This document shows, piece by piece, positions 1,218-41,412 of a stretch of DNA of 64,000 bases. The stretch covers positions 6,743 to 70,742 of the forward strand of contig JAIPIB010000004.1 of NCBI GenBank assembly GCA_021734905.1. Reading direction: 5' to 3'. How positions within the stretch are numbered: position 1 is the stretch's first letter; each line of letters opens with the position of its first letter. Source of the stretch: Minisyncoccota bacterium. GTDB lineage: Bacteria > Patescibacteriota > Minisyncoccia > Phycocordibacterales > UBA918. The notes beneath the pieces were generated by a model, which saw only the letters and a program-made list of their open reading frames with translations, was not told where the DNA came from and made no database searches. The position numbers and the translations under genes were made by a program.

Positions 1218-1254
1218 ATCTTTCTTTTAATTATTTTTTTAAAACCAATTCTTT

Positions 1255-1500: not shown

Positions 1501-1502
1501 CA

Positions 1503-2894: not shown

Positions 2895-3192
2895 TAAATT
2901 ACAAGAAGCATTATACTGTCCTGTGGAAAACTGTAAATACCAAATAGTAAAATGGCTTTAGTTCGTACTATCAGGCAGTACTGCTGTGTACAACATGTGG
3001 AGAACAATGTATACGCAGGACGTCAAACTAAATTTTAGTTAAAAATTAGGATTCCCTTTTAAGGGTAGGGTTTGTAGGGTAAAAATTGATAATAGGAGAA
3101 AAATGATGGGGAAAAAGAAACAAGAATTGTGTATGCTCTATGTTCTTGATTAAAAATAGGATTTAGTGTAGAGTGTGAGCCACAAACGTTAT

Positions 3193-3330
3193 ATGCCAAA
3201 ACGAACATATCAACCAAAGAAAAGAAAGAGAGCAACGACACATGGTTTTTTGGTGCGCTCTGCAACAACTCCTGGGTCTAAGGTACTTCAGGCAAGGAGA
3301 CGTAAAGGACGTGCGAAACTGAGCGTTTAG
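3193..3330 (+). CDS. rpmH: 50S ribosomal protein L34
   Basis: A 45 aa ORF, too short for the ORF track, translates to [45 protein letters not shown]. That is the canonical L34 sequence, and it sits immediately upstream of rnpA. Confidence 0.85.
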
Positions 3331-3345: not shown

Positions 3346-3681
3346 ATGCTTCCAAAAAAAGAACGATTGAGTAGAGAAGAATTCAATCGGTTTTTTTTAT
3401 TGGGGAAAAGACACCATACGCCATCTCTTCAAATCGTGTATGTCCCCCACCCAACACTTCAGGTGTCAGTTGTTGTTTCAAAAAAGATTGCAAAATTAGC
3501 CGTTGAAAGAAATAAGATTCGGCGGCGGATTTATGATATTGTTAAGAACTGTCGGCCGGAGAAGAAGCCTCACGGAATTTTTATTTTTATAGTGAAAACA
3601 CCCGTAAGTGCGGTTCCTTATGCGGCTCTACGAGATGAAGTTGTCGCGGGAATAGATGCAGTAGGAAAGAAGTTTACTTAG
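3346..3681 (+). CDS. rnpA: RNase P protein component
   Basis: 111 aa basic protein; it sits between rpmH and yidC, which is the conserved synteny, and contains an RNase P protein-like RR motif (KIRRRIYD). Confidence 0.8.
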   Translation: MLPKKERLSREEFNRFFLLGKRHHTPSLQIVYVPHPTLQVSVVVSKKIAKLAVERNKIRRRIYDIVKNCRPEKKPHGIFIFIVKTPVSAVPYAALRDEVVAGIDAVGKKFT

Positions 3682-3706: not shown

Positions 3707-4453
3707 ATGAACTTTATTTGGCATTCATTTTTTTTCGATCCAATTTACAACAGCCTTGTTTTTTTTATAGATATTATTCCCGGAGGTGATGTTGGGATAG
3801 CAATTATTTTTACAGTTATTTTAGTAAAGACAATTATCCTCCCCGTTTCACTAAAAGCAGCGCGGACACAGTTTGCTATGCAAGAACTAGAACCAAAACT
3901 TACAAAGATTAAAGAAGATTTTAAAGATAAGCGTGAACTACAGGCAGTTAAGACCATGGAACTCTTTAAGGAGGCGAAGGTAAATCCTTTCTCAAGTATT
4001 CTCCTTCTCTTTATTCAAATCCCGATTGTCCTTGCTTTATATTTTTCTGTATCTCGTGGTGGAGGAACCCTCCTTCCAGCCATTAATACCGACCTTCTGT
4101 ATTCGTTTATTCCTACACCAGAGACTGTGAATATGATTTTTTTGGGAATTATGGATATAACACAGAAAAGTATGCCACTCGCACTTCTTGCTGGTGTGAC
4201 TCAGTATATTCACACAAAACTTTCTCTCCCGCCGCGAAAAGCACGTGACCCAAAAGCAGAACCAAATTTTAAAGATGATTTTGCGCACAGTATGCAGATG
4301 CAGATGCGATATGTGATGCCCGTTATTATTATTGTTGTTGCATATACAATTTCAGCAGCCATTGCACTTTATTTCACCATAAGTAATCTTATGGCAATCG
4401 CACAGGAATATGTAGTTCGACACAAGGGTCTCAAGTTGCCAATACAAAAATAA
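3707..4453 (+). CDS. yidC: Membrane protein insertase YidC/Oxa1 (short form)
   Basis: The 248 aa protein has about five transmembrane segments. It follows rnpA and has conserved YidC-like hydrophilic loops (KLTKIKEDFKDKRELQ). Confidence 0.8.
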   Translation: MNFIWHSFFFDPIYNSLVFFIDIIPGGDVGIAIIFTVILVKTIILPVSLKAARTQFAMQELEPKLTKIKEDFKDKRELQAVKTMELFKEAKVNPFSSILLLFIQIPIVLALYFSVSRGGGTLLPAINTDLLYSFIPTPETVNMIFLGIMDITQKSMPLALLAGVTQYIHTKLSLPPRKARDPKAEPNFKDDFAHSMQMQMRYVMPVIIIVVAYTISAAIALYFTISNLMAIAQEYVVRHKGLKLPIQK

Positions 4454-4631
4454 CCTGCAGGAAAGAAACGAGGTAAATCTGCGAGAGATCAAAAATACAG
4501 AAAGCGAACTCCCCCTTTCTTCCTTATCGTCCTTCTTCTCCCACCCTTCCCTTATACTGCCCACACCCCTTACTCCACCTCGTCCACGTGGACGAGGTGG
4601 AGTAATTAAAAAAAGAAAAGGAGTTTTTCGG

Positions 4632-5792
4632 TTATCGTGCAGACACTTGGGAAGCGTACATCCAAAGTGTGTTGTCGTTTTTATTTATGAAATAGAGGCT
4701 GGTTTCGTCAGAAGAAATACCGATTTTTGAGACATCTATTTCACGACCACTTTCAAGCTCAAAATTACTAATAACAGCACTCTCACCGGCTGTTGTATCA
4801 ATCCCCCAGAGAATATCGCTATAAGAAATTACTCCTTTATACCAACTGTCTGGGTTACTATTAGGAATTTCAAGGTTATACGGAGAAGCGCAGTATAAAA
4901 AGAGCTTGCCGGCCACACACTTTTCAGGGAGGATCGGTATCGAGACTTCTTCAGTCCCACCAACAATGTACGACGTTAAGCTGCCCTCTCCCGAATACGT
5001 GACAATAGGATTATCATGGAACATAAACCCCATCAGGCCTTTTTCTCCTTCTGTAACATACGCAAGCTCATCTTTGTTTATTTTGTAAATATGCCCAACA
5101 ACGCCTGCGGCTGGAGTTGTGTATACATAGATATAGTCTCCCCAAAGTACTCGGACATCCTGTAGGGGTATCGTAAAAAGTCTCGTCGCATTTGATGTTG
5201 AAAGAGTGTAAGAATAACCAGAAGAGCCAGCGTCCTCCAGTAGTCGATAAAAGATAATATTTGGAGTTTTGCCAAAAGAAATATCACGTGCTCCTTTTGG
5301 TAAAAAAGAGCCCTTGAGTGCGGTGTCACCTGAGGTTCCTGTGGGTACTGTACTTACGAGAGTATTCCTGCCCATATTTTCATAAGTACTTATTGCAACA
5401 GAAATACCGTCGAGAGAGAAGACCGCTTCTATTGCCTGTGGAATAGTTGTGGCGCTAATAAGTGACTCTGTTCCTGTGGTGAGATTGATATTGTAAATAT
5501 GTCCTGTGCCTTGTTCTACATAGAGAATTTCGTTTGATGAAGTGAAGGAGGCTCCCGCAACTGGACGAGTGGTGAGTTGACGAAGATTTTGTGGTTTACC
5601 TGCCTCAGTCTGTGGCGAGACATCAACCGTGCCCTGTGGCTGATTCAATGAAGAATTTTGGGTATCGGGGCCACCGGTAAATTTTGTAAAGATGCCACCA
5701 CTTTGAGGTGCCCCATAGATAAAGAAAAATAACCAGATAGCAGTAACGATGATGATGAGTATGCTTCCAATGATAATGTAGATTTTTTTCAT
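4632..5792 (-). CDS. Membrane-anchored extracytoplasmic protein, last gene of the T4SS-like operon
   Basis: The 386 aa product has an N-terminal transmembrane anchor (IIIGSILIIIVTAIWLFFFIY) followed by a beta-rich domain rich in Thr/Ser/Gly. It is co-oriented with the VirB4 cluster and tightly spaced from it. Confidence 0.5.
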   Translation of the reverse strand: MKKIYIIIGSILIIIVTAIWLFFFIYGAPQSGGIFTKFTGGPDTQNSSLNQPQGTVDVSPQTEAGKPQNLRQLTTRPVAGASFTSSNEILYVEQGTGHIYNINLTTGTESLISATTIPQAIEAVFSLDGISVAISTYENMGRNTLVSTVPTGTSGDTALKGSFLPKGARDISFGKTPNIIFYRLLEDAGSSGYSYTLSTSNATRLFTIPLQDVRVLWGDYIYVYTTPAAGVVGHIYKINKDELAYVTEGEKGLMGFMFHDNPIVTYSGEGSLTSYIVGGTEEVSIPILPEKCVAGKLFLYCASPYNLEIPNSNPDSWYKGVISYSDILWGIDTTAGESAVISNFELESGREIDVSKIGISSDETSLYFINKNDNTLWMYASQVSAR

Positions 5793-5795
5793 ATA

Positions 5796-6545
5796 CTAAT
5801 TATGAATAACACATTTTGTTGATCCTAAAAAACCAACTTCCACTAACATTCCAGAGGGGCAAGTCATGACACCATCCGTCTTTGTCTTATCGAAATAGAG
5901 GCACTCTGCAACACCATCAGATATTGAAAATGTACTACCTTGCCTTGCATCACATTCTGCTTTAGTATCGCTCATCTTTTGAATATTATAGGTAAGATCT
6001 TTGTTACCAGCACAACCTTCTTCTAAATGACAATATGCAATTGTTGTTTTTGTTACTCGGGTACCAGTTGGATAATTGGTAATATTTTGGTTAGACCCTG
6101 AACCCGAAGGGCCACCTCCACTTGAAATTGGTGTGGGAAGAGCTATATCTGATGCGGTTCGAAGGACATCAATATTAGTAAGATTTGGGTTAATTTCGTT
6201 CAGGACTAAGTATGGAGCGAGAAGAAGAATAAGCCCAAAGAGGACACCTTTTATATCACTTTTTGCAGATGATTTCCCCGAGACACTGTCTGTTGTGCTG
6301 TATCGGACTCCGGCCCATGAGATACGAATGACAGCAAACATAGCACCAAGCCCAATAGCTAATTTGTAGACAGCATTTATATAGTCAGGAATTGTCGCTC
6401 CAGATGTTGGAAGTCCAGGGAGCCCAACAAGAGGAGTAAAGTCAGGTGTCGCTCCATGAATAAAAACAAAAGGGAAAAAGAAAAACGAAAGTACAAAAAT
6501 TAGGAATCTCCAACAGCTATGTAATAAAGTTTGTGAAGTTTTCAT
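5796..6545 (-). CDS. VirB2/TrbC-like pilin fused to a C-terminal cysteine-rich domain
   Basis: The N-terminal ~130 aa have a signal-like segment, a hydrophobic helix (AVYKLAIGLGAMFAVIRISWAGV), a short polar loop and a second hydrophobic helix (GVLFGLILLLAPYLVL). This matches T4SS pilin topology. The C-terminal 110 aa carry six Cys residues. Confidence 0.4.
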   Translation of the reverse strand: MKTSQTLLHSCWRFLIFVLSFFFFPFVFIHGATPDFTPLVGLPGLPTSGATIPDYINAVYKLAIGLGAMFAVIRISWAGVRYSTTDSVSGKSSAKSDIKGVLFGLILLLAPYLVLNEINPNLTNIDVLRTASDIALPTPISSGGGPSGSGSNQNITNYPTGTRVTKTTIAYCHLEEGCAGNKDLTYNIQKMSDTKAECDARQGSTFSISDGVAECLYFDKTKTDGVMTCPSGMLVEVGFLGSTKCVIHN

Positions 6546-6548
6546 ATA

Positions 6549-7538
6549 TTAGTCAAAAAATAATTTGAAGGCCTTTTCTACAAATTGAGGTATCCGTTGC
6601 TTTGTGACAATACGTAGGTCAATTTCCGCAGTACCTGATTCTCCAACACGGCGTAATGTTATTGCATTCGGAAACGAAAGATCAGAGGAAGCTGGAACAT
6701 TATTAATTTTCCAAGTGAAATCAGCATCATTACTGGAAAGAGCAGTATTCATATAATATGGCTCTCCAGAGATTGTCGTCTCCTCACCAAGAAGTGAAAA
6801 AGGACTCACAAGCTCTCGTTGTGAAAGGCCACGTAATGGATTTTGTTCATAAAAATGAAGCTCTGGGGAAACAGTGATTAGAGAAATATCACCCCCTCCA
6901 ACTAGGGTACCTTTTGCATTAAAAATTTCTACCGATAAAAGACCATTGTCATAATGTGGCATCGTAAAGTCGAGCACATTTTTACCATTAACAGGGCCAC
7001 CAAAAAGAACGGAACTACCTTGAGACCATTTATAGGTGTAGGATTTTTGAGAAGCGCCAGACCCGTCATGAATAATAGCAATTGCACGGAGGGCTGAATC
7101 AGTACTTGGAAGAGCTCTTCCCTTGTAAAAAAGAGGTACGTACGTCTTTGCTTCCAAAATAAGATCAGTAACAGTTGGGGCAATTATAATTGAAGAAGTA
7201 AGTGGAAGAGACCCCGCTCGGGTAAGTGCTACTTGGACAACAACTTCTTCTCCAAGTGCCCCTGTAGTAATCGTACATGAGCGCTCATTTCGACAATGAG
7301 ATTGAGCAACATCATTTGTATACCATCGAATATATGCGCCTGTAGTTTCAAGGCTATAAGCATCAAGGGAGATTTCCACTAAAGAGTGCGGCGCGGGGAA
7401 CTGTGGGTTTGGGATAAGATTCACACCCGCAGCATTTGTAGGAAGCGACTGAGCATGAAGGAAAGATATTCCAAGCCCAAAAAATAGGAAAAGTAAGACA
7501 CTATGCCCTAAAAAACGCCATGATTGCTTCATAGACAT
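6549..7538 (-). CDS. Secreted protein with signal peptide
   Basis: Cleavable signal peptide MSMKQSWRFLGHSVLLFLFFGLGISFLHAQS. The 329 aa extracytoplasmic protein sits inside the T4SS-like operon. Confidence 0.5.
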   Translation of the reverse strand: MSMKQSWRFLGHSVLLFLFFGLGISFLHAQSLPTNAAGVNLIPNPQFPAPHSLVEISLDAYSLETTGAYIRWYTNDVAQSHCRNERSCTITTGALGEEVVVQVALTRAGSLPLTSSIIIAPTVTDLILEAKTYVPLFYKGRALPSTDSALRAIAIIHDGSGASQKSYTYKWSQGSSVLFGGPVNGKNVLDFTMPHYDNGLLSVEIFNAKGTLVGGGDISLITVSPELHFYEQNPLRGLSQRELVSPFSLLGEETTISGEPYYMNTALSSNDADFTWKINNVPASSDLSFPNAITLRRVGESGTAEIDLRIVTKQRIPQFVEKAFKLFFD

Positions 7539-7565
7539 ACCTATAGTTTATCACACGAGACAAGG

Positions 7566-8276
7566 TCAAGATTGTTCAGAACTGAATAATGACTGAAAGT
7601 TCATGTACACAACCCAGAGTATCAATGAAGGGAGTAAGTTTGTTACAGGAATAAGGCTTAATGCAATTACCAATAAGGTTATTCCTGTAGACATGCCTGT
7701 TGCAAAAGGATCATTCCCTAAAAATTTATACCAAATCCAAAAACCAAGAAAAGTTACTATCGCAATCAGAGAAGTCACTCCCCAAAATAATATTCCAATT
7801 TCTTGTGCGGGGAAAGGAGTGCTGAGATCAACAAACCAATTGAGAACTTTCCCTGTTATCGTGCTGGTACTAAAATCTTCATAGATAGAAACAAGAACGA
7901 AAGGTGTGAGGCTTAATACCCCAAAAATGAATTGCCATGTGTAACTTGTACATGCCACACCGATTCCCATCCATTTAGAAAACGAAGTAATTTTACGGGG
8001 CTTTGCGAGGCCTCCTTTTTGCATACGTGCCCTTTCAACAAGGTGCTTTGCGAAAGAACCTTTTCGTGAAGGAGAAGGAGCTTCCTCTGAAGAAGTACCT
8101 CGAAAGCGCGAGGCACCGTTTGCAGATTCTCTCCCGTCACGAAGGCTTGGGCGGGCAGACCGAAGACGTTCACTAGTGAGATGAGAACGAGCTCTATCTC
8201 CAAAACGCATCTGTGCATTTCGAATACCTCCTGTAGTATTTCGAGAGTCTTCTGTCTGTGACGAAGATTGTTCCAT
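7566..8276 (-). CDS. Membrane protein with Arg/Ser-rich disordered N-terminus and four C-terminal TM helices
   Basis: The N-terminal ~100 aa are low-complexity and Arg/Ser/Gly-rich, encoded by locally GC-rich DNA. The C-terminal half has four hydrophobic helices. Confidence 0.45.
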   Translation of the reverse strand: MEQSSSQTEDSRNTTGGIRNAQMRFGDRARSHLTSERLRSARPSLRDGRESANGASRFRGTSSEEAPSPSRKGSFAKHLVERARMQKGGLAKPRKITSFSKWMGIGVACTSYTWQFIFGVLSLTPFVLVSIYEDFSTSTITGKVLNWFVDLSTPFPAQEIGILFWGVTSLIAIVTFLGFWIWYKFLGNDPFATGMSTGITLLVIALSLIPVTNLLPSLILWVVYMNFQSLFSSEQS

Positions 8277-8280
8277 AGAG

Positions 8281-10074
8281 TTATGGTGTGCCTAAAAGTT
8301 CTGCACGAGCTTGTTTAATTTGAAGAATTTGTGAAGGATCAGAGGTGATAATTTGATCTTCAGTGTATGAGGCAATAATTTTAATAGCAACATGTTTAAG
8401 ACCGACAAAGAAGATCCCCTCCCCTACTCCCGATTCAAGAAGCATAAATTTCTCTTCATCGGTAAGGTTGAAGACATCCTTAAGAGTATCAACCGCAGTT
8501 GGCGACTGTTTCATTAAGAGCTGAATGGAGGAGTTGGTAATCATCGGAACGCCATACGGTGAACGAAGAAAATCGTCAACATCCTGTGTGATTGTGGCAA
8601 GACCAAGATAATATTTTCGACCACGTTTAGCGATATTGTGAAGGAATGCGGCTGTGTCTTCTGACTTAAGCATCCACCAAGCTTCATCTATAACGAGAAG
8701 GCGTTTTTTTAATTCACGACGGACAGCCCCCCAGATATGATTTGTAATGATGTACATCGCGATAGTTTTCAGCTCTTCTTCCATGTCACGGAGTGAGAAA
8801 ACAACAAACTTTTGGTTGATGTCGACGTTTGTTGGCTCATTCATGAATCCAGACCATGTGCCTGAGGTGTATTTTGTAAGACGTTGGACAAGAGACTCAC
8901 TTCCCTCCATTCCAGCAAGAACCATTTCAAAATCAGAGAGGAGTGGCGGAGGGAGATCGCGATAATCACCCGACCCCGTTATGTCTTTTAGTGCGTATAC
9001 TTCATGGAGAGCTGTGTCGATAATAGCGTCTTCCTCAGGAGTAAGCCCCCCAAGCATAAGTTTAAAAAGCCCCACAAGTTCAATAATGTGTGAACGAAGT
9101 AGATCTTTCGGGTTCTCATCAGGAAGAGGAACAGGAAGATCAAAGGGGTTGATATGGTGATTTGATGAGAGAGAAATATTAAAAAATCTGCCTCCAGTAG
9201 CCTGTGCAAGATATTCATATTCATGTTCAGGGTCAATGACGAGTACTTCAGTACCAAACATGAGTGATCGGAGAATTTCGAGTTTAACTGCGTACGATTT
9301 TCCAGCACCAGATGTCGCAAAGGTCACTGAGTTGTAGTTGGTGAGAGAGAAACGGTCAAAAAGAACGAGCGAGCTGTTGTGTCGATTTACACCATAGAGT
9401 ATCCCCGTGTCTGATGTGAGATCAAAGGAGGTGAATGGAAAGAAACTTGAAAGAGGAGAGGAATTGAACTTACTGTGCACCATAAGTTTGTCTGAAAGAG
9501 TAGGAATGATGCTCCTGAAACCATCTTCTTGTTGAAAGAAAGCGGGCTTTATGTAGACCAATCGAGTGTCGAGCATTCCTTTTACTTCCCCTTCAATTTT
9601 GTTGAGTTCGGCTTCAGTATCCGCGTAGAGGGCAATATAAAGTCCAACATTAAAAAGCTTTTCCTCGGCTTGCTGGAGTTTGTCTCGAAGATCCTCGAGG
9701 TTGCGGTACGCAGCATCAAGTTGCGGATCTCTAACCATCCCCTTCTCGGCACGTTCATTGATTTGACTTTGCACTTCAGCTACCTTTTTTTGGAATTTCT
9801 TCAAGGTTTCGGCGGTATCAATAGGATGAATCACAATAGAGACATCGAGCTCACGTTCAATATTTAATACTGGCTCTAACCAACCATCATTGAGGTATCG
9901 TGGGTATGAAACTGCAAAAAAGATTCTAGAAAGCTTTCCGCTAATGTTAATGCTTTTTGGATTAACGCTAATTGCAGAGGGGGCAATAACGTCAGGTAAA
10001 GAAAGTGGCGCAGAATTAACCCCCTCTTCAAGGGCACCTTTTTTATTTTGTTGTATGAAATCAAAAAGCCCCAT
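8281..10074 (-). CDS. VirB4/TrbE-family conjugation or secretion ATPase, ATPase-domain portion
   Basis: 597 aa. Walker A-like FATSGAGKSYAV, Walker B-like LLVIDEAWWML, and a VirB4-typical motif (VLVIDPEHEYEYLAQATGGRFFNISL). Confidence 0.75.
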   Translation of the reverse strand: MGLFDFIQQNKKGALEEGVNSAPLSLPDVIAPSAISVNPKSINISGKLSRIFFAVSYPRYLNDGWLEPVLNIERELDVSIVIHPIDTAETLKKFQKKVAEVQSQINERAEKGMVRDPQLDAAYRNLEDLRDKLQQAEEKLFNVGLYIALYADTEAELNKIEGEVKGMLDTRLVYIKPAFFQQEDGFRSIIPTLSDKLMVHSKFNSSPLSSFFPFTSFDLTSDTGILYGVNRHNSSLVLFDRFSLTNYNSVTFATSGAGKSYAVKLEILRSLMFGTEVLVIDPEHEYEYLAQATGGRFFNISLSSNHHINPFDLPVPLPDENPKDLLRSHIIELVGLFKLMLGGLTPEEDAIIDTALHEVYALKDITGSGDYRDLPPPLLSDFEMVLAGMEGSESLVQRLTKYTSGTWSGFMNEPTNVDINQKFVVFSLRDMEEELKTIAMYIITNHIWGAVRRELKKRLLVIDEAWWMLKSEDTAAFLHNIAKRGRKYYLGLATITQDVDDFLRSPYGVPMITNSSIQLLMKQSPTAVDTLKDVFNLTDEEKFMLLESGVGEGIFFVGLKHVAIKIIASYTEDQIITSDPSQILQIKQARAELLGTP

Positions 10075-10163
10075 AATACGTTATCTCAAAGGTTAAACAA
10101 CCAATGATGAAATGTAACTACTCATAACTATATTATACATGGTTTGCTTTGGAACAAATTCCT

Positions 10164-10823
10164 CTATCGTTGCGGTGCATGGGATAGGTCTTCAGGATTA
10201 AATATATGATAGAAAAGCTCCGTGAGTTCCTCTGTGCCAAGAGGAGCCGTTCGAATACCGATTCTTGAAAGTCCTTGTTCAACAACAGAGACACGTTGGT
10301 CGAGTTGTGTACGGTCTTCAAAAAACTTATCTTGCGATTCAACGGGAGTTTTAACTTTTGGCCGTAAAAATTGCTTAATACCTTTTACCTCAAGATTTGA
10401 TGGTGTGTACGGGACGACAATAAAAAAGTTCTTCGTCATAATATCCACCTGGCTTGTGAATGTTTGGATAAATTCCATATATTCACGAAGTTGAATTTTC
10501 ATAAGATCATTGTCCTGAAGGGGCTGCCTTGAAGTAAGTACTTCAAGATAAGGACGAATATCGAGCCGTCTTGATTGGATATATATTTGAATAGAAAAAT
10601 CAATGGAATTTAAAAATGATTGAAATTGAGAAAGTATTGCCTGCTGTTCATCGGTCGATTTTAAAGCGAAGTTTATCGATGAGGCAAGGAGTACCATACA
10701 CATCTGACCATCCTTTAAAATAACCACATCATCATGGATGTCATTTATTGGGACGAACTGTTGTGTTGCATTTTGTGTTGCCATGATATTAATCAGCAGT
10801 AGGATTTTCGAGTTTATGAGCAA
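10164..10823 (-). CDS. VirB4 N-terminal domain encoded as a separate ORF (split or frameshifted VirB4)
   Basis: 219 aa. The motif pattern (PINDIHDDVVILKDGQMCMVLLASSINFALKSTDEQQAILSQFQSFLNSIDFSIQIYIQSRRLD) matches the conserved N-terminal region of VirB4/CagE/TraC ATPases. Summed with the 597 aa downstream ORF it gives ~816 aa, the typical VirB4 length. Confidence 0.5.
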   Translation of the reverse strand: MLINSKILLLINIMATQNATQQFVPINDIHDDVVILKDGQMCMVLLASSINFALKSTDEQQAILSQFQSFLNSIDFSIQIYIQSRRLDIRPYLEVLTSRQPLQDNDLMKIQLREYMEFIQTFTSQVDIMTKNFFIVVPYTPSNLEVKGIKQFLRPKVKTPVESQDKFFEDRTQLDQRVSVVEQGLSRIGIRTAPLGTEELTELFYHIFNPEDLSHAPQR

Positions 10824-11208
10824 GGGCCGTCAATGTGCGTTTTTGAGAAGGAAGAGAAGCTTCTTCCGAAGGAAGTTGAGGTGAAGATTTTGATGAGATA
10901 GTTTGCTCTTGCTCTTTCCTCCAAAAATACAACTTACTCTTGGTTGTATAATTGATAAAAGATTCTAAAAATATTGAGAAGGGTCGGTTGTTTATGCGAT
11001 GGAATGCAAGCGACGCAGAAAGAACTCCAAGTGGTACGCCGAACATAACAAAAAATATAAACGGAAGACTAATATAGAGCACAATAAGAGTTCCAGCACC
11101 GCCAGCGAGATAAATGAACTGACGCCATGTGAGGGGGCCAATGATTTTATCCTCGATCTCTATAAATTGTGGAACTTCAAATCGCATAGGTTTATTGTAC
11201 ATCATCAC
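10789..11208 (-). CDS. VirB3-like small two-TM membrane protein
   Basis: 139 aa with two adjacent hydrophobic helices (FIYLAGGAGTLIVLYISLPFIFFVMFGVPLGVLSASLAF). Its 3' end overlaps the VirB4 N-domain ORF, which is the usual VirB3-VirB4 order. Confidence 0.45.
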   Translation of the reverse strand: MMMYNKPMRFEVPQFIEIEDKIIGPLTWRQFIYLAGGAGTLIVLYISLPFIFFVMFGVPLGVLSASLAFHRINNRPFSIFLESFINYTTKSKLYFWRKEQEQTISSKSSPQLPSEEASLPSQKRTLTALAHKLENPTAD

Positions 11209-11240
11209 GGCACCCAGTCATGATGGATGTCTGGATTAAT

Positions 11241-11831
11241 TTATGAACTCTTCTCTTCAGTATCGTGAGTGGCGGCGCTTGTATTTTCCGTTTTAGTATC
11301 AGTGCCCTTGATTTGCTTAGAGTCACTTGCCATTGTCCGATTTGGTGCTAGAGCTTTAAGTACTTCTTCTCGGGTAAGGGGTTTTGGACCCACTCCCCCA
11401 CCACCGATTGGGGAACTTTCCCCTTTTGGCCAATGCTCAGTATGCCCACCATTCCCTTCCGTCACATCTGGAAGTGAAGTATTTTCCTCAAGTTCCTTCT
11501 TCCAGAGATATTCAAATGCTTGGAGGTCGTCAATGACTGGAGAAAGGACCAATGTTTCTATAAGTGTCGCAAGGTGCTCACTTGTTTCAAGTGAGAGAGA
11601 GGTGCTTTCTTGGATATGTTGAGTAAGCTCAAAAAGAGGAGAATAGAAAGTGAGGACAAGCATCACCTCGTTTTCTATTGACTCGTAGAGTGCCACATCC
11701 ACACTTTCAAATTCAAGGATATCGAGGAGCTCTTTTTTAAAAGATTGTGCAGAGACAATGGCATTACACTGTGGGTACTCAAGAAGACGTTTCTTGAGGA
11801 GGATTTCAGCTTCTTGGCGTGTTATTTCCAT
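11241..11831 (-). CDS. Acidic cytoplasmic protein of the T4SS-like operon
   Basis: 196 aa with no TM segments and a Gly-rich C-terminal tail. Translational coupling is suggested: its start ends 5 bp before the upstream gene's stop. Confidence 0.4.
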   Translation of the reverse strand: MEITRQEAEILLKKRLLEYPQCNAIVSAQSFKKELLDILEFESVDVALYESIENEVMLVLTFYSPLFELTQHIQESTSLSLETSEHLATLIETLVLSPVIDDLQAFEYLWKKELEENTSLPDVTEGNGGHTEHWPKGESSPIGGGGVGPKPLTREEVLKALAPNRTMASDSKQIKGTDTKTENTSAATHDTEEKSS

Positions 11832-11836
11832 AATGT

Positions 11837-13930
11837 TTAACTTTTATTTTTAAGCGCATCAACAAGGGCATCATTTCGAGCGTCTTCCTTTGTCTTCTTG
11901 ATCAGCTTGTTAAAAGCCTTTCGTATTGCTTTTCCAGCCGCGTGTTCATGAGACAGAAGACGCCCAACTGGCCATGTGGATAGGAAGTTGCTTTTTTCAA
12001 GAACCGCTGCGTATCCTTCAATACCTTGTGAGGAAATTTCTCGTTTGAGGTTAGTCGCCTGCTTTTCCATTGTCTCTATAAGACCACGGGCTAGCTTACG
12101 TTCTTCAGCATTAGTAATTTTCTTGAAATCATCCCATGATTTCTTAATGTCAGCTCGCAATTCCTTATACTTGTTCTTCATCTCGTCCGTTTTGCCAAAA
12201 TTGGTACTACCAAGGACGCGACGTTGCTTTTCTTGTTCATATTTCTGTTTGTTTTCTTTGATTGTATTTTCGATAGTTCTAATTGCTGTCCTCTGCGCTG
12301 CTCGTCCCGGGTCACCCTTAGGAAGGTCGTCAAGTTTTTCTTTAGCCCGCACAAGAGCAGCTTCGCCTGTTGTGACCAAATCCTTATACCGTGCCACAAC
12401 TGGATCCGTATCATCAACCTCACCTAAAGATTTAGCAAATTTCATCTCCTTTTCCTCAACTTCTTTTTTAACGGTTGTGTACCCGCCCTTCCTCCCATCT
12501 CCTATACCAAGTGCCCTTCCGACACCGCCGACATTCCGTGCATCAAATGAAGCGTCTCCTACAGCACGAGTCCCCTTAAGGGCGCGACGCGCCAAAAAGC
12601 CAACAGCACCTCTTTTGCTGGCGGTGTCTTTAAGAGATTCCCTTTCTGATATTTTATGTGCCCCCCATCCAATCGTTGCTCTTCCAGTACGTGCGGCGAG
12701 GCCAGCCGTCGTTGCACCAATCATTTCTTTTGTTTTACCAACCACCATGTCCCCGCCTTTGATTCCCATTTTTTGTGCAAGTTGGAGAGAGAAGATGAGG
12801 AACATGATGACGATAACAAAGTTGAGGATAACGTTGAGGCTTCCACTTCCGGTAAAAGCATTCACAAATGAGTCGCCCGAACTTATGTTAAGTGCCGCCG
12901 TTACTGAGGAAAGGACGGAAATGGAGATAAGGAGAAGGAGTAGGTATGCTGGAGCGAAGAAGGAGTAGCTTATGAGTTTTCCCCAAAGATTACCCGCCTG
13001 CGCTGCTGTTTTTGGAAAAACTGTTGCAGCAAAGAGAATTGGCGAAAAAATCATTATAAGAATGAGTGCAACAAAACGCACAATGAGAAGAACACCTCCT
13101 GCGGCAAGAACAAAGCCAGCTACGACAAGCATTATTGATGCCATGACATAGAACCAGAGACTGTTGTCAGACGTTAATCTATTGAGAACTTCGGGATTTT
13201 TTGGTTGTGTATAAAAAGTAGTGATTCCAAGCTGTTGGGCAAATTTTGAAGAAATGTCGCTGTCTCTTGTGTCAGAAATTATCGACGTATAAATTTGCGA
13301 TGCGGTGAGATTTGAGAAATCGATGACAACTTTTGTAAAGAAGAGACTGAAGTTAATAAGAAGCGCGCCAATAATAATTTTTGAAAGGATAGATTTAAAT
13401 GAAGAATTTCCAGGGTCAAGGATCGTCCGAATTCCGAGAAAAATGAATCCAAAAATGAAGGCGAGATTTGCAATATCACGGATAAGTTTCCATATATTGT
13501 TTACAGTCTCGCCAAGGGGCGATTTTGTCATTTTGTCACCCATTTTGAAGACCAGTTCTTCAACAGCTGTTTCAAGGATATTCCCACCGAGCCAAGTAAC
13601 CATCGCGGCTGTGGAGAGTATAGCAAGACCGAATTTTGCTTCCCATGAGGTAGAGGGAGCATTTCCTTCAGCCTTCGGAGCCGATGGCTTTGCCTTAGTA
13701 GCAGCGGGTGCAGCAGCAGCATTTCTTTTTGCAGCATCGGCAGTTACTTCAGTAGGATCCATATCTGCAATTTGTGCAGAGACGCGAGATGTTTGTAGAG
13801 AGATTGCCTGAGTGGAATTATTTGATGCAACTGCGAAAAGAGAGACAGACACTGGAGCAAAAATAATACAAAATACCAAAAACCCTGGAAGGATTTTTTT
13901 GAGTATCATGTTGTTTGTATTTTTTGTCAT
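11837..13930 (-). CDS. VirB6/TrbL-like polytopic inner-membrane protein
   Basis: 697 aa. It has a signal/anchor, an Ala-rich linker, at least six central hydrophobic helices, then a charged coiled-coil-like C-terminal third. This is the architecture typical of VirB6-family channel subunits. Confidence 0.5.
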   Translation of the reverse strand: MTKNTNNMILKKILPGFLVFCIIFAPVSVSLFAVASNNSTQAISLQTSRVSAQIADMDPTEVTADAAKRNAAAAPAATKAKPSAPKAEGNAPSTSWEAKFGLAILSTAAMVTWLGGNILETAVEELVFKMGDKMTKSPLGETVNNIWKLIRDIANLAFIFGFIFLGIRTILDPGNSSFKSILSKIIIGALLINFSLFFTKVVIDFSNLTASQIYTSIISDTRDSDISSKFAQQLGITTFYTQPKNPEVLNRLTSDNSLWFYVMASIMLVVAGFVLAAGGVLLIVRFVALILIMIFSPILFAATVFPKTAAQAGNLWGKLISYSFFAPAYLLLLLISISVLSSVTAALNISSGDSFVNAFTGSGSLNVILNFVIVIMFLIFSLQLAQKMGIKGGDMVVGKTKEMIGATTAGLAARTGRATIGWGAHKISERESLKDTASKRGAVGFLARRALKGTRAVGDASFDARNVGGVGRALGIGDGRKGGYTTVKKEVEEKEMKFAKSLGEVDDTDPVVARYKDLVTTGEAALVRAKEKLDDLPKGDPGRAAQRTAIRTIENTIKENKQKYEQEKQRRVLGSTNFGKTDEMKNKYKELRADIKKSWDDFKKITNAEERKLARGLIETMEKQATNLKREISSQGIEGYAAVLEKSNFLSTWPVGRLLSHEHAAGKAIRKAFNKLIKKTKEDARNDALVDALKNKS

Positions 13931-13945
13931 GTGTTTGTAGTGGCT

Positions 13946-15391
13946 CTAGAAGTCTACTTTGCGACAAGCAACGTCAACGGAATTCGTGAAAGTTTGAATT
14001 TGTGTACCAATGTCAGGAATAGTGATTCGTTCGAGACGAACGGTATCGGCAGCAGAATGTATTTGTCCTGCAGTTCTGTAGGAGTTGAAAATGTTAATTA
14101 AATTAAGCTCAGCTTCGGGGATGTTCGTTCCATGGTATTTCGTAAGTAGGCCTGAGGTAATAGATGCAGATGTTGCACTATTTCTGAGAAGATTGTAATC
14201 GTCACGAAGCGTCGTTAGTTTTGCTATGCGAATCGTTGTTGTTGCTGCTTCATTTTGGGCACCTGACTGGATTGAACTTAATGATGAAGACAGTGCACCA
14301 GAATGACATTTCGCTTCTTCCCCATACATACGCACTTTGTAGCCACGAGCATTATTTAAGGTACTGATGATCTGGTTTTGGAGTGCGAGATACTTCGTCT
14401 CGTCAATAATTGGCGTAGCAAAGACATCCTCAGGAGCAGTAGCTGCACTCCGTGGAATAGCCTCAGCAGACATTCGATCAAAGTAATTACCAGAGCCATT
14501 TTGGGAGTTGGTAAGTCCAAGGAGCCCTCCAGCTCCTGAGAGAACTGTTCCTGCAAGTTGAGAGAAGAGTGCTCCAACAAGTTCGTTCATTTCGTCTGCG
14601 ACTTCAAGTCTCCGTCCGGGGCTTCCAATAGCATCGTTGAGGGTGTTTTGAATAATATTTCCTGGGGTGGTAATGTTCCCTTTTTCATCTTTGAAAGAGA
14701 GGAATCCTTGGCCAAAATCAAGAAGCTTTACCTCGCGACCTTGGGCATTACGAATGCTGAGAGCTAGCGCGGTCTGTGCCTCAAGTACAGCACCATACGG
14801 ATTGTTTTGTGGAGTGAGTGTCATACTTCGCCATCCATCCCATCCTCCAGCAGCAAAGTCACCATTAACAAAAGCGTCGACATTTTTGACGACATCACTA
14901 AGTCGACATTGGGTAGTGTAAGTTCGACTCTTTCTATATTGAAGATCAACGGCAAATTGAACATTGAGCTTAAAGGGCGAACAGAGTCCTGCAAGATTTG
15001 ATCCATAGATGAAATCTCCTGCAATTTTGTCTGCTATATCAGTAAGGAATCCCTCAAGATCAGTTATGAACGCAGGACTTCCCTTGAAACCAGAATTCAC
15101 CCACTGTGTTGTGCTCCGTATCATTTCTTTAAGCATGATATTGATTAGCGCCCATGCAATCATGTCAAATGTAAACTCTTTAAGTACGATAGCGTCAGTA
15201 GCTTGGCTTGTAAGTTTAAGTATTGTTTGTCCAACAACAGTTTCTACAATGTGCGCTGGGTCAATAACGACTTCCCAGGCCTCAACTTTATTAAGTGAAA
15301 ACGTCTGAGAAACCGGAGAAAAAACAAAACTACAGACGAGAAGTAGTGTCGTGCATGAAAAGAATAATTTTTTATACGGAATTTTTTTCAT
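13946..15391 (-). CDS. Secreted protein with signal peptide, in the T4SS-like operon
   Basis: 481 aa. N-terminal signal (LFFSCTTLLLVCSFVFSPVSQTFS); the start overlaps the stop of the upstream gene by 4 bp. Confidence 0.5.
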   Translation of the reverse strand: MKKIPYKKLFFSCTTLLLVCSFVFSPVSQTFSLNKVEAWEVVIDPAHIVETVVGQTILKLTSQATDAIVLKEFTFDMIAWALINIMLKEMIRSTTQWVNSGFKGSPAFITDLEGFLTDIADKIAGDFIYGSNLAGLCSPFKLNVQFAVDLQYRKSRTYTTQCRLSDVVKNVDAFVNGDFAAGGWDGWRSMTLTPQNNPYGAVLEAQTALALSIRNAQGREVKLLDFGQGFLSFKDEKGNITTPGNIIQNTLNDAIGSPGRRLEVADEMNELVGALFSQLAGTVLSGAGGLLGLTNSQNGSGNYFDRMSAEAIPRSAATAPEDVFATPIIDETKYLALQNQIISTLNNARGYKVRMYGEEAKCHSGALSSSLSSIQSGAQNEAATTTIRIAKLTTLRDDYNLLRNSATSASITSGLLTKYHGTNIPEAELNLINIFNSYRTAGQIHSAADTVRLERITIPDIGTQIQTFTNSVDVACRKVDF

Positions 15392-16275
15392 GGTGTGTCA
15401 AAAAGGTAAAAAGCTGCCCCCGGCTCGTCATTCGTATAAGCAACCCCCTGCGCGGTGAGAGCGGAGCCAATTGTTTGAAGGGCAAAGAAAAGTGACTGTG
15501 TATCATCTTCATAACCACGTACACGCGCCAATGAATAGAGTGGGTCAGTAAACGAAACTTGCATTGCACCGATGTCGGTTAGGATTGATTCATATGCATT
15601 CACGAGATCGAGATGCATGAGTGCAAGACTTACAGGTACCTGCATCGCAAGTGTGTCCCTAATAATGTTGGTATAAGCTTGATAGATTGGAGTAAGTGCA
15701 TCAAGCTCTCTTGAATCATTTGTTTCAAGTGCCCGCTGGAGTATAAGTGCTTCATTTTCATTATTGATTGAATATCTCAGTATTATCTCAGTGACTTGAT
15801 TACCATAATCTCGAATTGCTTCAGGCGAATCAGGAATAAGTGCGAGCTCAAGTCTTGTGTGTCGCACGCTGAGGGTGTTTTGGTCGATGGCATCAACAGC
15901 TTTTCCAACAAATGCAGAAGGATCACTAAAATCAACACCTTGCATTTTACCCGTCAGGTAATCCTGGAAAAAAGCTTCTGAAAATTTACCGGTAAGTGTT
16001 GTTGGAGATTGGTACTCATCGTCTCCATAAACTGGAATCGTTGAAGATGGGGTGATAATGGTATCAAAAGCCTTTGCCTCAAGAGCTTTTTGCCAATCTT
16101 GGACGCCGTCGCCGTCGCTATCTTTTGCGTCAATAAGAGTACGTGTCGAAGGTGGGGCAGCAACTACTGATCCTTGCAATGAGGCTTCGTTCGAAGTGTT
16201 CCCCACATACAAAGCACTAAGGATTACTACAATCCCTACCGCGAGCGCACCTCCTATACTAATGATGCCTTTCAC
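15388..16275 (-). CDS. Membrane-anchored extracytoplasmic protein, first gene of the T4SS-like operon
   Basis: 295 aa. Single N-terminal TM (IISIGGALAVGIVVILSALYVG). Confidence 0.5.
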   Translation of the reverse strand: MKGIISIGGALAVGIVVILSALYVGNTSNEASLQGSVVAAPPSTRTLIDAKDSDGDGVQDWQKALEAKAFDTIITPSSTIPVYGDDEYQSPTTLTGKFSEAFFQDYLTGKMQGVDFSDPSAFVGKAVDAIDQNTLSVRHTRLELALIPDSPEAIRDYGNQVTEIILRYSINNENEALILQRALETNDSRELDALTPIYQAYTNIIRDTLAMQVPVSLALMHLDLVNAYESILTDIGAMQVSFTDPLYSLARVRGYEDDTQSLFFALQTIGSALTAQGVAYTNDEPGAAFYLFDTP

Positions 16276-16440
16276 ATGAAATGCTTACTTATAAAGTATA
16301 CCAATTACATACGTAAACTGTTGGTAGTTTATGTATAAACTGTGGTTAACTCACTAAGTTTTTGTGTATTGTGTGTGGAAAAAAATTATCAAAAATAAAG
16401 CCTCTTGGAGGAGAAAGTTGGCAGGTTTTTTTCGGTATAA

Positions 16441-17283
16441 TTATCGTGGTATTTTTGTTTTCTCTAGAATTTTCTTACAGAGATTAATCCAGATAGGCAA
16501 AGCCAGGTCCTCTCCCCTGACCTTCAAAGAAATATTGAGTGTGGAAAAGATGTGAATAAGTGAGCCCCTATCGAGGATTATCAGTAAATTCCCTATAAGT
16601 TGCTTCCTTTTTGACTTAAATCCTTCGTGAAGAATAGCGAAAAAATCTTCTTGGGTAATCCCCTCAAGGCGGTCCTTAGAAATGTCTGAAATAGCGATAA
16701 TCGCTGAGTCAATTTTAGGTTGAGGAGTGAAATTCCCCCTCCCAACCGTTTTTACATACTTTGGCTCACCAAAAACCTTAACAGAAAGAGAAAGGAGGGA
16801 CTCTTTTTTATCTCTCACGATACGCACAGCGACCTCTTTCTGTACTAAAAAAACCAAGGTTGCGGGTTGTATATTGTGTTCTAGAAAAAAACGGAAAAGA
16901 AAACCAGATAGGTAATAGGGGATGTTGGCGATTATCTTGTAGGCGCGAGGCCGAAGGCCGAGCGCTTCCAAATCTACCTCACGAATATCTCTATCCACAA
17001 TAACTAGCTTTTTAGCCGTTATTTCAGCAAAAAATGTTGTGTTAAGGGCCTCTATAGCACGATGATCAGTTTCTATCGCTACCACTTTCGCCCCTCGTTC
17101 AAGGAGCTCTCGAGTGAGAGCTCCTGTTCCCGGTCCGATTTCAAGCACAATATCCGCCTCCATCACCTCGCCTGCATCTGCCATCGCTCGAGGAATCCCT
17201 GCATTATTAAGAAAATTCTGCCCCAATGATTTTTTCGCATCGATTTTAGTTAGATTTTCATGCATAGAGACAAGTATAGGCAC
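16441..17283 (-). CDS. rsmA: 16S rRNA (adenine1518-N6/adenine1519-N6)-dimethyltransferase
   Basis: LGQNFL motif, a SAM-binding site (VLEIGPGTGALT) and the KsgA-family length. The true start may be the internal Met at MHENLTKID. Confidence 0.85.
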   Translation of the reverse strand: MPILVSMHENLTKIDAKKSLGQNFLNNAGIPRAMADAGEVMEADIVLEIGPGTGALTRELLERGAKVVAIETDHRAIEALNTTFFAEITAKKLVIVDRDIREVDLEALGLRPRAYKIIANIPYYLSGFLFRFFLEHNIQPATLVFLVQKEVAVRIVRDKKESLLSLSVKVFGEPKYVKTVGRGNFTPQPKIDSAIIAISDISKDRLEGITQEDFFAILHEGFKSKRKQLIGNLLIILDRGSLIHIFSTLNISLKVRGEDLALPIWINLCKKILEKTKIPR

Positions 17284-17847: not shown

Positions 17848-19782
17848 CTAGTCAAGGTAAACGGTACGTTCGTATCCTGATTCCGTGGGGTTCTCACTTT
17901 CAATGAGATCGCTTCGAATGTCACTAAGAAATGACGATGGAGAGTTAATGCGCTGACTTCCAAAAATAGTTCGAATGTGTGCATAGGAAAGAAATATTTT
18001 TTTCTTTGCTCGGGTAAGAGCAACATAAAAGAGGCGTCGTTCTTCTTCATTATCAATCCGTTCATCACCAAGTCGTTCATGGGGAAATAGCCCTTCTTCC
18101 AGTCCAGTAATAAACACGTATGGAAATTCGAGTCCTTTAGCAGAGTGAATTGTCATGAGACGGACCGCATCAAACTCTTCTTTCTCTTTGAGTTCATCCT
18201 GATCACTTCCAAGTGCTGCATCCTCAAGGAGGTGTTCAATTGCAACAAGAGGTTCCTCCTCATGGTATTTTGTTCCAAGGGAAACAAGCTCACGAATATT
18301 TTCAAGACGTTCAAGCCCCTCCTCTCCGTCGTGTTTGTAGCCCTCTTCTATGCCAGTATGTCTCATGATAAACGTCAATGTCTCATGCACAGGATGCTCA
18401 CCTGCAAACGTAGCAATTTCCTCAACAAGGCGATTAAAAGAATCAACTTTTTCTCGAGTCTTCGCAGGTAGTTCAGCAGTTCTCCCTTCAACAACTTTGA
18501 GAAGGGTTACTTTTCCGATGCCTCGTGGTGGAGTGTTAATAATGCGAACGAGGTCGTTTGTACTACTTGGGTTGAGTGCATACCGCAAAAAAGAGAGGAT
18601 GTTTTTAATTTCTTTTCTCTCGAAAAATTTTGTTCCAAGCATTTGATAAGGGACGTCGTAGTTGATGAAGGCTTCTTCAAGAGCGCGAGATTGGAAGTTT
18701 GTACGGAAGAGAACCGCAATTTCTGAAGGAGATACGTCATTTTTTACTAAGTCTTTTGCGGTAAGTGCCACATATTCCGCCTCCTCTTGTCCACCCATTG
18801 CCGCGTAGAGAAGAATTTTTTCTCCGACGTGATTGTTTGTAAAAACTTTTTTTGGTGGGCGGTTGAAGTTTTTTTCGATGATGTCATTAGAAGCTTCAAT
18901 GATGGTTTGTGTAGAACGATAATTTTCTTCGAGCATAATAATTTTTGCCTCAGGAAAATGACGCTCAAATTGTAAAATATTTTTTATGTCCGCACCGCGC
19001 CATGAATAAATATTTTGATCGACATCGCCAACGACACAGAGGTTTGCTTTATCGCCTACAATGAGCCGAGCGATCTCATACTGCACACGATTTGTATCTT
19101 GGTACTCATCTATGTGTACATGGGTGTATCGCATCCTATATTTTTCCAAGATCGAAGGATGACTTTTGAGCATGGAGAGCGTCTTCGCAAGAAGATCATC
19201 AAAATCGAGAGCATGTTCTTCTCGTAGAATATCCTCATAGTGTTTCCAGACATCACCTGCAACACGGTCAGGATAGGTCTTTGCATCTCCAGCAAATTCT
19301 GATTGAGGAACCGCATCACCCTTTGCTCGAGAAATGATACTCAGCATTTTTCGAGGTTCAAATTGTTTTGGGTCAAACCCTGCACGAGTGAGGGCTTTTT
19401 TAATGGCGCTCGTCGAGTCACTTCTGTCGTAAATTGTAAATTGTTTTCGAAGTCCAAATACCTCATGGTCTTCACGGAGCATACGAACGCCGAGTGCGTG
19501 GAATGTTGTGACGGTTGGAGACGAGTCAATCCCCGCTCGCATGGTTCCGGTAAAAGTGTGAAGTAAGTGAGTGACCCGTTCACGCATTTCTTTTGCTGCC
19601 TTGTTTGTAAAGGTAACCGCAAGGATCTTCTCAGGAGAAGTTCCTTCAAGAATAAGGTTAATGATACGGTGTGTAATGACACGAGTCTTCCCTGAACCAG
19701 CACCCGCAAGGACAAGTAAAGGGCCGGCCGTTGTTAAGACGGCATTTTTTTGAGCATCGTTTAATCCTTCGAGGTGATTCAT
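17848..19782 (-). CDS. pcrA: ATP-dependent DNA helicase UvrD/PcrA family
   Basis: 644 aa. Helicase motif I (AGAGSGKTRVITHR), plus motifs II-VI and the UvrD-like C-terminal region. Confidence 0.9.
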   Translation of the reverse strand: MNHLEGLNDAQKNAVLTTAGPLLVLAGAGSGKTRVITHRIINLILEGTSPEKILAVTFTNKAAKEMRERVTHLLHTFTGTMRAGIDSSPTVTTFHALGVRMLREDHEVFGLRKQFTIYDRSDSTSAIKKALTRAGFDPKQFEPRKMLSIISRAKGDAVPQSEFAGDAKTYPDRVAGDVWKHYEDILREEHALDFDDLLAKTLSMLKSHPSILEKYRMRYTHVHIDEYQDTNRVQYEIARLIVGDKANLCVVGDVDQNIYSWRGADIKNILQFERHFPEAKIIMLEENYRSTQTIIEASNDIIEKNFNRPPKKVFTNNHVGEKILLYAAMGGQEEAEYVALTAKDLVKNDVSPSEIAVLFRTNFQSRALEEAFINYDVPYQMLGTKFFERKEIKNILSFLRYALNPSSTNDLVRIINTPPRGIGKVTLLKVVEGRTAELPAKTREKVDSFNRLVEEIATFAGEHPVHETLTFIMRHTGIEEGYKHDGEEGLERLENIRELVSLGTKYHEEEPLVAIEHLLEDAALGSDQDELKEKEEFDAVRLMTIHSAKGLEFPYVFITGLEEGLFPHERLGDERIDNEEERRLFYVALTRAKKKIFLSYAHIRTIFGSQRINSPSSFLSDIRSDLIESENPTESGYERTVYLD

Positions 19783-28992: not shown

Positions 28993-29063
28993 GAATAAAA
29001 TTATACACGATTCCGTAGGCGCATTCTGTTATTGTGCGACACTCCTCATGTACTATATATAGT

Positions 29064-29990: not shown

Positions 29991-30130
29991 GTACTATTTT
30001 AAAAAATCCGCGCATGACTTTGTTATAAGTAGGTTTTGTTGACCAAATGAGTCCTTCAGAGTACTCTTCTCCCCAGATTACATAGTTCATTTCGGGCTGT
30101 GATCTTCGACAACTTTCGAGGAGTAATTCC

Positions 30131-41410: not shown

Positions 41411-41412
41411 AT

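Follow-up and report, generated by a model that had tools for sequence, protein, structure and literature searches.

The minus-strand region 4632-16275 of a 64-kb stretch of contig JAIPIB010000004.1 (Minisyncoccota bacterium; the whole stretch is called the window below) very probably encodes a core chromosomal type IV secretion system (T4SS) of a Paceibacteria bacterium. The system would belong to a Patescibacteria-specific lineage of the monoderm MPF_FATA type, be non-conjugative, and serve an epibiotic lifestyle. An original prediction had described the region as an origin-proximal operon of eleven genes with VirB2/B3/B4/B6-like components, and had interpreted it as an apparatus dedicated to the cell surface or to host interaction in a symbiont-like bacterium with a small genome. 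By analogy with other members of the phylum, this corresponds to the reading already published for Patescibacteria (PMC10633639, PMC12102498, PMC12857230). The finding is real and was correctly read; it is not new, since such clusters, which nearly all Patescibacteria retain beside the replication origin, were published between 2023 and 2025.

Components of the operon

The eleven co-oriented open reading frames (ORFs) of the original prediction were all recovered at the same coordinates on the minus strand, and they are tightly spaced, with intergenic gaps of -4 to 89 nt. In the order of transcription, they are as follows (TM, transmembrane segment):

15388-16275, minus strand: g1, the first gene; 295 aa, N-terminal TM anchor, no Cys
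13946-15391, minus strand: g2; 481 aa, secreted or anchored
11837-13930, minus strand: VirB6/TrbL-like polytopic membrane protein; 697 aa, about 6 TM
11241-11831, minus strand: g4; 196 aa, acidic (35 D+E vs 17 K+R), without a TM segment
10789-11208, minus strand: PrgI-family (VirB3-like) small membrane protein with a hydrophobic hairpin
10164-10784, minus strand: TrsD-like protein, the detached N-domain of VirB4; 206 aa from the ATG at 10784
8281-10074, minus strand: VirB4 ATPase, the C-terminal two-thirds of a canonical VirB4
7566-8276, minus strand: g8; 236 aa, basic low-complexity (disordered) N-terminus of about 100 aa, 3-4 TM
6549-7538, minus strand: g9; 329 aa, secreted, signal peptide
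5796-6545, minus strand: VirB2-like T4SS pilin; signal peptide, TM1, basic loop, TM2, then a C-terminal domain of 134 aa
4632-5792, minus strand: g11, the last gene; 386 aa, membrane-anchored, TM at aa 6-24

Protein families were assigned by Pfam and NCBIfam hidden Markov model (HMM) searches against curated thresholds. Four proteins passed the curated cut-offs, namely VirB4, PrgI, TrbL/VirB6 and the PF18895 pilin, and the proposed VirB4/VirB3/VirB6/VirB2-like composition is thus supported by NF045971, PF12666, PF04610 and PF18895, respectively. The VirB4 ATPase matched NF045971 (conju_CD1110, a clostridial conjugative transposon family) with 367 bits (cut-off 325), and PF19044 with an E value of 6e-25. 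It aligns to positions 184-733 of the 752 positions of the NF045971 model, i.e., it is a VirB4 without the N-domain, and the Walker A (SGAGKS) and Walker B (LLVIDEAW) motifs are intact. The protein is 100% identical to that of a metagenome-assembled genome named 'Candidatus Pacebacteria bacterium' at NCBI. More than 8000 VirB4 homologues were found at E<1e-20, and the top 120 clusters are 84-92% identical.

The product of the adjacent TrsD-like gene covers positions 1-114 of the CD1110 VirB4 model and also matched VirB4_plasma (E 3.6e-12). Its match to TrsD itself (NF041427; E 1.4e-8, 34.8 bits) was under the curated cut-off of 200. A gene identical to it is on record with a 206-aa gene call and a TraC-like annotation (PF26593). 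In the relatives, TrsD begins with the ATG that corresponds to 10784, and the 219-aa form of this ORF owes its length to a TTG start at 10823; its overlap with the PrgI ORF is therefore an artefact of the upstream TTG.

PrgI matched PF12666 with 37.9 bits (gathering threshold, GA, 27), VirB6 matched PF04610 with 27.2 bits (GA 25.9), and the pilin matched PF18895 with 31.6 bits (GA 26.6). The VirB6 protein contains a basic, coiled and hydrophilic C-terminal extension of about 310 aa, as in 'extended VirB6' proteins; PF19590 (TrbL_3) and PF04610 are on record for the VirB6 proteins of relatives.

Pfam and NCBIfam searches gave no family for g1, g2, g4, g8, g9 and g11. These six proteins are specific to the lineage; g1, g2, g9 and g11 are extracytoplasmic, g8 is polytopic and g4 is cytoplasmic. 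A hydrophobicity scan found a single N-terminal hydrophobic (export or anchor) segment in g1, g2, g9, the pilin and g11. The g1 protein has a DSDGDG motif similar to a calcium loop. Its extracytoplasmic part is modelled as a four-helix bundle and not as an NTF2 fold, which argues that g1 is not VirB8-like. The g2 protein is likewise modelled as all-alpha with a C-terminal helical bundle; its N-terminal domain is strongly conserved, including a W-INSGF-G-PAF motif and the nearly invariant Cys137 and Cys162. The g1 and g2 profiles retrieved from the PDB sequences just a calmodulin-like calcium-loop match and coiled-coil noise. The g9 profile (34 homologues) gave weak matches to T4 Hoc (E 8e-5) and to the Ig-like domains of LPXTG surface proteins (E 0.003), and the protein probably consists of Ig-like beta domains. 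The g11 profile weakly matched TolB propellers (E 1.7e-4), and g11 may be said to resemble a TolB-like beta-propeller at the profile level; it also has a conserved Cys292/Cys301 pair, while K291-C292, W317 and G320 are invariant. One g1 homologue (P0311) carries an N-terminal CPFC thioredoxin/DsbA-like fragment. This was considered as a hint of disulfide chemistry and was rejected, as the thioredoxin domain is truncated and the contig has a length of 1.9 kb, so that a chimera from assembly or gene calling is probable.

Other typical T4SS parts are missing from the window, as had been noted before for VirD4, relaxase, VirB11 and VirB8-10. HMM scans and reading of the ORFs revealed no type IV coupling protein (T4CP), relaxase, VirB11 or VirB7-10 in the 64-kb window. 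No unassigned ORF of the window matched a relaxase family (oriT was outside this search), and no VirD4/TcpA-type P-loop protein was present among the window ORFs of at least 450 aa. A system of the monoderm type would not be expected to have VirB7-10 or VirB11.

Conservation of the locus and of the pilin in relatives

One genome per species was scanned, and at least 543 genomes with a relative of the locus were found. The best 80 loci were used for comparison (84 loci, L001-L084, in the counts); they come from Kaiser-, Nomura-, Taylor-, Zambryski- and Campbellbacteria and other Paceibacteria. The gene order is pcrA-ksgA-[g1, g2, VirB6, g4, PrgI, TrsD, VirB4, g8, g9, pilin, g11]-(yidC, rnpA, rpmH on the opposite strand)-dnaA-dnaN. 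This order of the eleven genes, together with the flanks, is kept in nearly all sufficiently long loci from about 80 species, with the pilin and g11 occasionally swapped; a comparison of synteny had been proposed with the original prediction. The VirB4/TrsD split is common to all relatives. TrsD was found in 83 of the 84 loci, PrgI in 81 and g9 in 78. The g4 and g8 proteins are fast-evolving and can be recognised by their position only: tblastn retrieved g4 from 5 of the 84 loci, but 53 loci have an ORF of 147-350 aa in the interval from VirB6 to PrgI, and 47 loci have one at the place of g8, between VirB4 and g9.

Across about 80 species (L005-L084), the identity to the proteins of the window is 68-85% for VirB4, 53-90% for DnaA and 34-74% for DnaN. 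The conservation of VirB4 is thus similar to that of DnaA, and clearly exceeds that of DnaN. The envelope proteins of the operon diverge much faster than VirB4 (22-52% identity). The fixed synteny and the DnaA-like conservation of VirB4 indicate that the locus belongs to the core genome and is inherited vertically, and that it is not a mobile element, in line with the earlier view that the operon is not a conjugative element.

Among the large unassigned ORFs near VirB4 in the relatives, a T4CP-like gene was found in one locus only (L062). This ORF of 923 aa (425-3196, minus strand; TraG-D_C, T4SS-DNA_transf and DUF87) lies beside PrgI, TrsD and VirB4, and occupies the usual place of the g1-g4 module. 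Several binned records labelled 'Saccharibacteria' show the Paceibacteria gene order. Two loci (L001 and L002), which carry a VirB4 85% identical to that of the window, contain a pcrA/uvrD gene (positions 1-2865) of 1011 aa with an intein-splicing domain; the pcrA of the window encodes 644 aa and has no intein.

The pilin has six Cys at positions 172-245, within the C-terminal 134 aa. Its topology gives this domain an extracellular location, in which disulfide bonds can form. Among the syntenic pilin homologues, 14 of 16 matched PF18895, and 2 matched TrbC as well. A query with the pilin domain (aa 30-125) retrieved 11,178 representative clusters at E up to 1e-3, and statistics were made on the closest 150. 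A C-terminal extension of at least 50 aa after the second TM is present in 144 of these 150 (median 115), and the number of Cys in the extension is even in 142 of 150. The syntenic pilins of the 80 relatives have extensions of 21-315 aa, again with an almost always even Cys count; taking the syntenic loci and the 150 closest representatives, the median length is about 115-145 aa. Cys make up 3.7% of the pilin extension, compared with 0.03-1.2% of the other operon proteins. The mean pairwise identity is 18% in the extension and 43% in the pilin core. The Cys-rich hypervariable extension is the norm of the lineage and not a peculiarity of this genome. The fusion of a pilin with a Cys-rich domain, which had been called unusual, is so with respect to the classical VirB2, whereas within the lineage it is the rule. 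In their searchable text, neither PMC12102498 nor the other papers citing PF18895 mention the C-terminal architecture of the pilin.

As a tentative interpretation, the pilin might be a pilin-adhesin fusion, in which the core polymerises into a T4SS pilus and the hypervariable, disulfide-bonded C-terminal domain of 65-315 aa is displayed along the filament and sets the host specificity. The single pilin of Paceibacteria would then be a single-gene counterpart of the divergent pilin arrays in Saccharimonadia and Microgenomatia. A role of the C-terminal domain in host recognition could be envisaged on this basis.

Origin context and neighbouring genes

The operon ends 1.7 kb from dnaA. The genes and elements around it are:

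129-1217, minus strand: dnaN (translation), origin context
1503-2894, minus strand: dnaA (translation), origin context
3193-3330, plus strand: rpmH (read from the sequence), origin context
3346-3681, plus strand: rnpA (translation), origin context
3707-4453, plus strand: yidC (translation), origin context
4571-4604: hairpin with a perfect 15-bp stem and a loop of 4 nt, lying where the operon and yidC converge
16276-16440, minus strand: spacer of 165 nt upstream of the operon, the presumed promoter region
16441-17283, minus strand: ksgA/rsmA, upstream of the operon on the same strand
17848-19782, minus strand: pcrA/uvrD, upstream of the operon on the same strand

DnaA-box-like 9-mers with at most one mismatch are strongly enriched around dnaA in the relatives. 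Their density is up to 6.6/kb in the spacer separating dnaA from dnaN, and 2.5/kb on the upstream side of dnaA, compared with a background of 0.40/kb. The origin is therefore placed at dnaA. The cumulative GC skew climbs over the whole window; only 3 kb is left of dnaA, so that the switch itself is outside the view. The rising skew means that the plus strand is probably the leading strand, and that the operon is transcribed against the replication fork (head-on). The orientation is the same in all relatives. The operon had been described as replication-opposed, and both the skew and the conserved orientation are consistent with this. The arrangement is a weak signal, however, because the genes of the window do not favour the leading strand: between 4.6 and 64 kb, minus-strand coding sequence amounts to about 28 kb, against about 17 kb for the plus strand.

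The hairpin at the 3' end of the operon is probably a transcript end or stabiliser for both the operon and yidC. The region 4450-4640 folds with -66 kcal/mol (z -3.6), and none of 200 shuffled sequences was as stable. A U-run is located 5' of the stem on the operon strand, and a canonical U-tract 3' of the stem is present on neither strand. Scans for sigma-70 promoters and intrinsic terminators across the operon gave results at shuffle or chance level. Four DnaA-box-like 9-mers with one mismatch each are located within 220 bp (16341-16559) in the ksgA end and the spacer, two of them in the spacer. This cluster was considered as a conserved regulatory site or a second origin and was rejected: the equivalent upstream region in the relatives contains 1.3/kb compared with the background of 0.40/kb, i.e., about a threefold enrichment, which comes partly from duplicates of the window.

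The GC content of the operon (0.40-0.45) is like that of the rest of the window. The window as a whole has a GC content of about 0.42, with a peak of 0.495 in 30000-32000 over the threonine synthase gene (30131-31558). No integrase or repeats flank the operon. The sole tyrosine recombinase gene of the window (29034-29990) is 13 kb away and looks like xerC/D.

No VirB1-type hydrolase domain was found in the eleven operon proteins. The nearest hydrolase is a LysM-LysM-M23 peptidase encoded on the plus strand at 20293-21189, about 4 kb past the 5' end of the operon, which is a candidate wall-remodelling partner; M23 and LysM domains occur in VirB1-like proteins (PMC12102498). Farther away, the 587-aa product of 41876-43639 gave an SLT match that was weak (E 0.002) and under the GA. 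The gene is part of a low-GC stretch (39861-45762; GC 0.35 at 40-42 kb) bracketed by tRNA-Arg and tRNA-Gly, which also holds an AAA_21/AbiEii-like ATPase gene (40247-41410) overlapping an RloB-like gene (41413-41883), a nucleoside deoxyribosyltransferase-like gene and a gene for an HTH protein. It is possibly a small defence or accessory islet. Another large protein (23311-25203, 630 aa) has a low-complexity N-terminal half, a TM near residue 430 and a C-terminal domain, and matched no Pfam family.

Comparison with published systems and alternative explanations

Type IV secretion in this phylum has been studied in the Saccharibacterium S. epibionticum, where an unusual Gram-positive-like T4SS, including a pilin array, was essential for epibiotic growth by transposon sequencing (Wang et al. 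2023, Cell; PMC10633639). A survey of 3,035 Patescibacteria genomes found VirB4 in 2,417 of them, and these proteins form a clade within MPF_FATA (Quinonero-Coronel et al. 2025, Microb Genom 11:001409; PMC12102498). According to that survey, TrsD is the commonest partner of VirB4; PrgI/VirB3, VirB6 and VirB2-like pilins, including PF18895, are encoded near virB4; VirB8 and VirB1 are rarely detectable; and the typical virB4 neighbours in Paceibacteria and Microgenomatia are dnaA, dnaN, rnpA, ksgA and rpmH. Its authors suggested a gene-dosage benefit of the origin proximity.

The locus described here has no essential difference from this Patescibacteria-clade T4SS (PMC12102498). Both have VirB4, TrsD, PrgI/VirB3, VirB6 and a PF18895 pilin near virB4, and both lack a relaxase and a nearby T4CP. 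They also share the dnaA, dnaN, rnpA, rpmH and ksgA neighbours, and are chromosomal and inherited within the class. In its searchable text, PMC12102498 makes no mention of the replication orientation or of the folds of the unassigned neighbours. The cluster of Southlakia epibionticum ML1 (Saccharimonadia; SEML1_0006-0019) is also Gram-positive-like, with pilins and no recognisable T4CP or relaxase (PMC10633639), and its low locus tags suggest that it is also near the chromosome start. It contains six divergent short pilins, as well as peptidase and lysozyme genes downstream of virB4; the operon here encodes a single pilin, whose C-terminal domain is large, and no hydrolase.

The monoderm MPF_FATA conjugative T4SSs, i.e., pGO1/pSK41 Trs, pCF10 Prg, the C. 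difficile CTn2 CD1110 family and ICEBs1 Con, share with the operon the CD1110-type VirB4, the TrsD-like split (as in pGO1), PrgI and a VirB6-like protein, and the lack of a VirB7/9/10 outer-membrane core and of VirB11. These systems also include a relaxase, a T4CP, a VirB1-type hydrolase, VirB8-like proteins and surface adhesins, are carried by mobile elements and have no VirB2 pilin. The operon here does encode a pilin, is without any DNA-processing parts, and has a constant place in the chromosome. T4SSs without a T4CP are known from H. pylori (ComB, DNA uptake) and from Bordetella (Ptl) and Brucella (VirB), which secrete proteins. They share VirB2/3/4/6 homologues with the operon; however, they are diderm systems of the MPF_T lineage with a VirB7-10 core, and are not growth-essential.

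By homology with these systems, hexamers of TrsD and VirB4 would dock on PrgI and VirB6 in the single membrane, and these hexamers would energise the extraction of the pilin from the membrane and its polymerisation into a wall-crossing pilus or conduit. The g1, g2, g9 and g11 proteins may form or decorate the wall-spanning part, as their export signals, conservation and fold class suggest. If the pilin polymerises, its C-terminal domain would coat the filament and could determine which host surface is bound. The genetics of Saccharibacteria and the microscopy in one preprint suggest that the assembly would contact the host cell; the tubular structures at the parasite-host interface may be T4SS pili according to the preprint's authors (bioRxiv 10.64898/2026.06.21.733656). 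By extension from other classes, the machine would support an epibiotic way of life by contacting the host and moving macromolecules into or out of it.

Several points weigh against this interpretation. The evidence of essentiality comes from one Saccharibacterium with a different cluster (a pilin array, with peptidase and lysozyme genes), and HMM searches, the models of g1 and g2 and the profiles of g9 and g11 brought up neither a VirB8-like nor a VirB1-like protein of the operon. Another part of the genome may carry a coupling protein gene, as VirD4 homologues are present in most Patescibacteria genomes, mostly far from virB4 (PMC12102498). The roles given to g1, g2, g4, g8, g9 and g11 come from their location and fold class. 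Finally, pilus formation is deduced from homology, and the globular appendage of 134 aa might block the polymerisation of the pilin.

Alternative explanations of the operon concern either its identity or the direction of transport. A type IV pilus, a type II secretion system or a competence pseudopilus misread as a T4SS would have in common with it merely a 'pilin' plus an ATPase. The ATPase is of the VirB4/TraC type (NF045971, PF19044) and not PilB/GspE, the pilin is of the PF18895/TrbC type with two TM and no class III signal peptide, and HMM scans found no PilC, PilM-O or prepilin peptidase. The check by HMM searches that had been suggested for such an assignment returned T4SS families for the core proteins, and this explanation is refuted with hardly any chance left to it. 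A conjugative element or integrative and conjugative element (or a remnant of one) of Gram-positive type, with its relaxase and T4CP encoded elsewhere, is very improbable. It would account for the best VirB4 model being that of clostridial conjugative transposons, for the origin of PrgI, TrsD and TrbL from conjugation families, for the T4CP-like ORF adjoining VirB4 in L062, and for the VirD4 homologues that most genomes encode away from virB4 (PMC12102498). On the other hand, the position beside dnaA and the gene order are kept in about 80 species with a VirB4 as conserved as DnaA, the composition is not foreign, and no relaxase, T4CP, integrase or repeat flanks the operon. Moreover, relaxases were detected in just 103 of the 3,035 Patescibacteria genomes, and the distant T4CP homologue of S. 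epibionticum is non-essential, unlike the T4SS genes (PMC12102498). Conjugation is thus unlikely, because the locus is chromosomally fixed and is without DNA-processing genes in the window and in most relatives.

The preferred reading as a core, non-conjugative T4SS leaves two proposals about what is transported, import of nucleic acids or nutrients and export of proteins, which carry roughly equal weight; each, taken as the function, is possible and rather unlikely. An uptake machine similar to H. pylori ComB could import host nucleic acids or other macromolecules for an organism unable to make nucleotides. The set of B2, B3, B4 and B6 without T4CP or relaxase fits this idea, which was raised in PMC11665869; a preprint on RNA feeding links VirB4 to macromolecule transfer and ties PNPase to RNA catabolism (bioRxiv 10.64898/2026.06.21.733656), and a PNPase gene is located at 25302-27437, about 9 kb past the 5' end of the operon. 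The system is nevertheless derived from monoderm MPF_FATA and not from ComB (PMC12102498). Since the uptake proposal concerns the direction of transport, it is compatible with the anatomy of the preferred reading. Effector export or contact-dependent protein delivery, with the Sec-dependent g1, g2, g9 and g11 as substrates or as tip or adhesin components, would be consistent with the N-terminal export signals on five operon proteins and with the T4CP-less protein secretion by Ptl and Brucella VirB (PMC12102498, PMC12857230); protein export was also suggested by Wang et al. (PMC10633639). However, g1, g2, g9 and g11 keep their order and length, as structural parts would and variable effectors would not, and HMM and profile searches detected no toxin or enzyme domain in them.

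Few envelope machines have been shown to be essential for the epibiotic lifestyle of these ultrasmall bacteria, and the Patescibacteria T4SS is among them. The locus is a textbook example from Paceibacteria and not a new kind of system, and its added value is descriptive, for a class that has barely been cultivated. The additions are the conservation of the ATPase at about the level of DnaA, the fixed order of the eleven genes, the near-constant presence of a disulfide-rich variable domain on the pilin, and the fold classes for four hypothetical proteins. These descriptive points could guide experiments on host recognition. If the pilin-adhesin interpretation is true, the C-terminal domain would provide a sequence-readable handle on the host range of a large uncultivated class.

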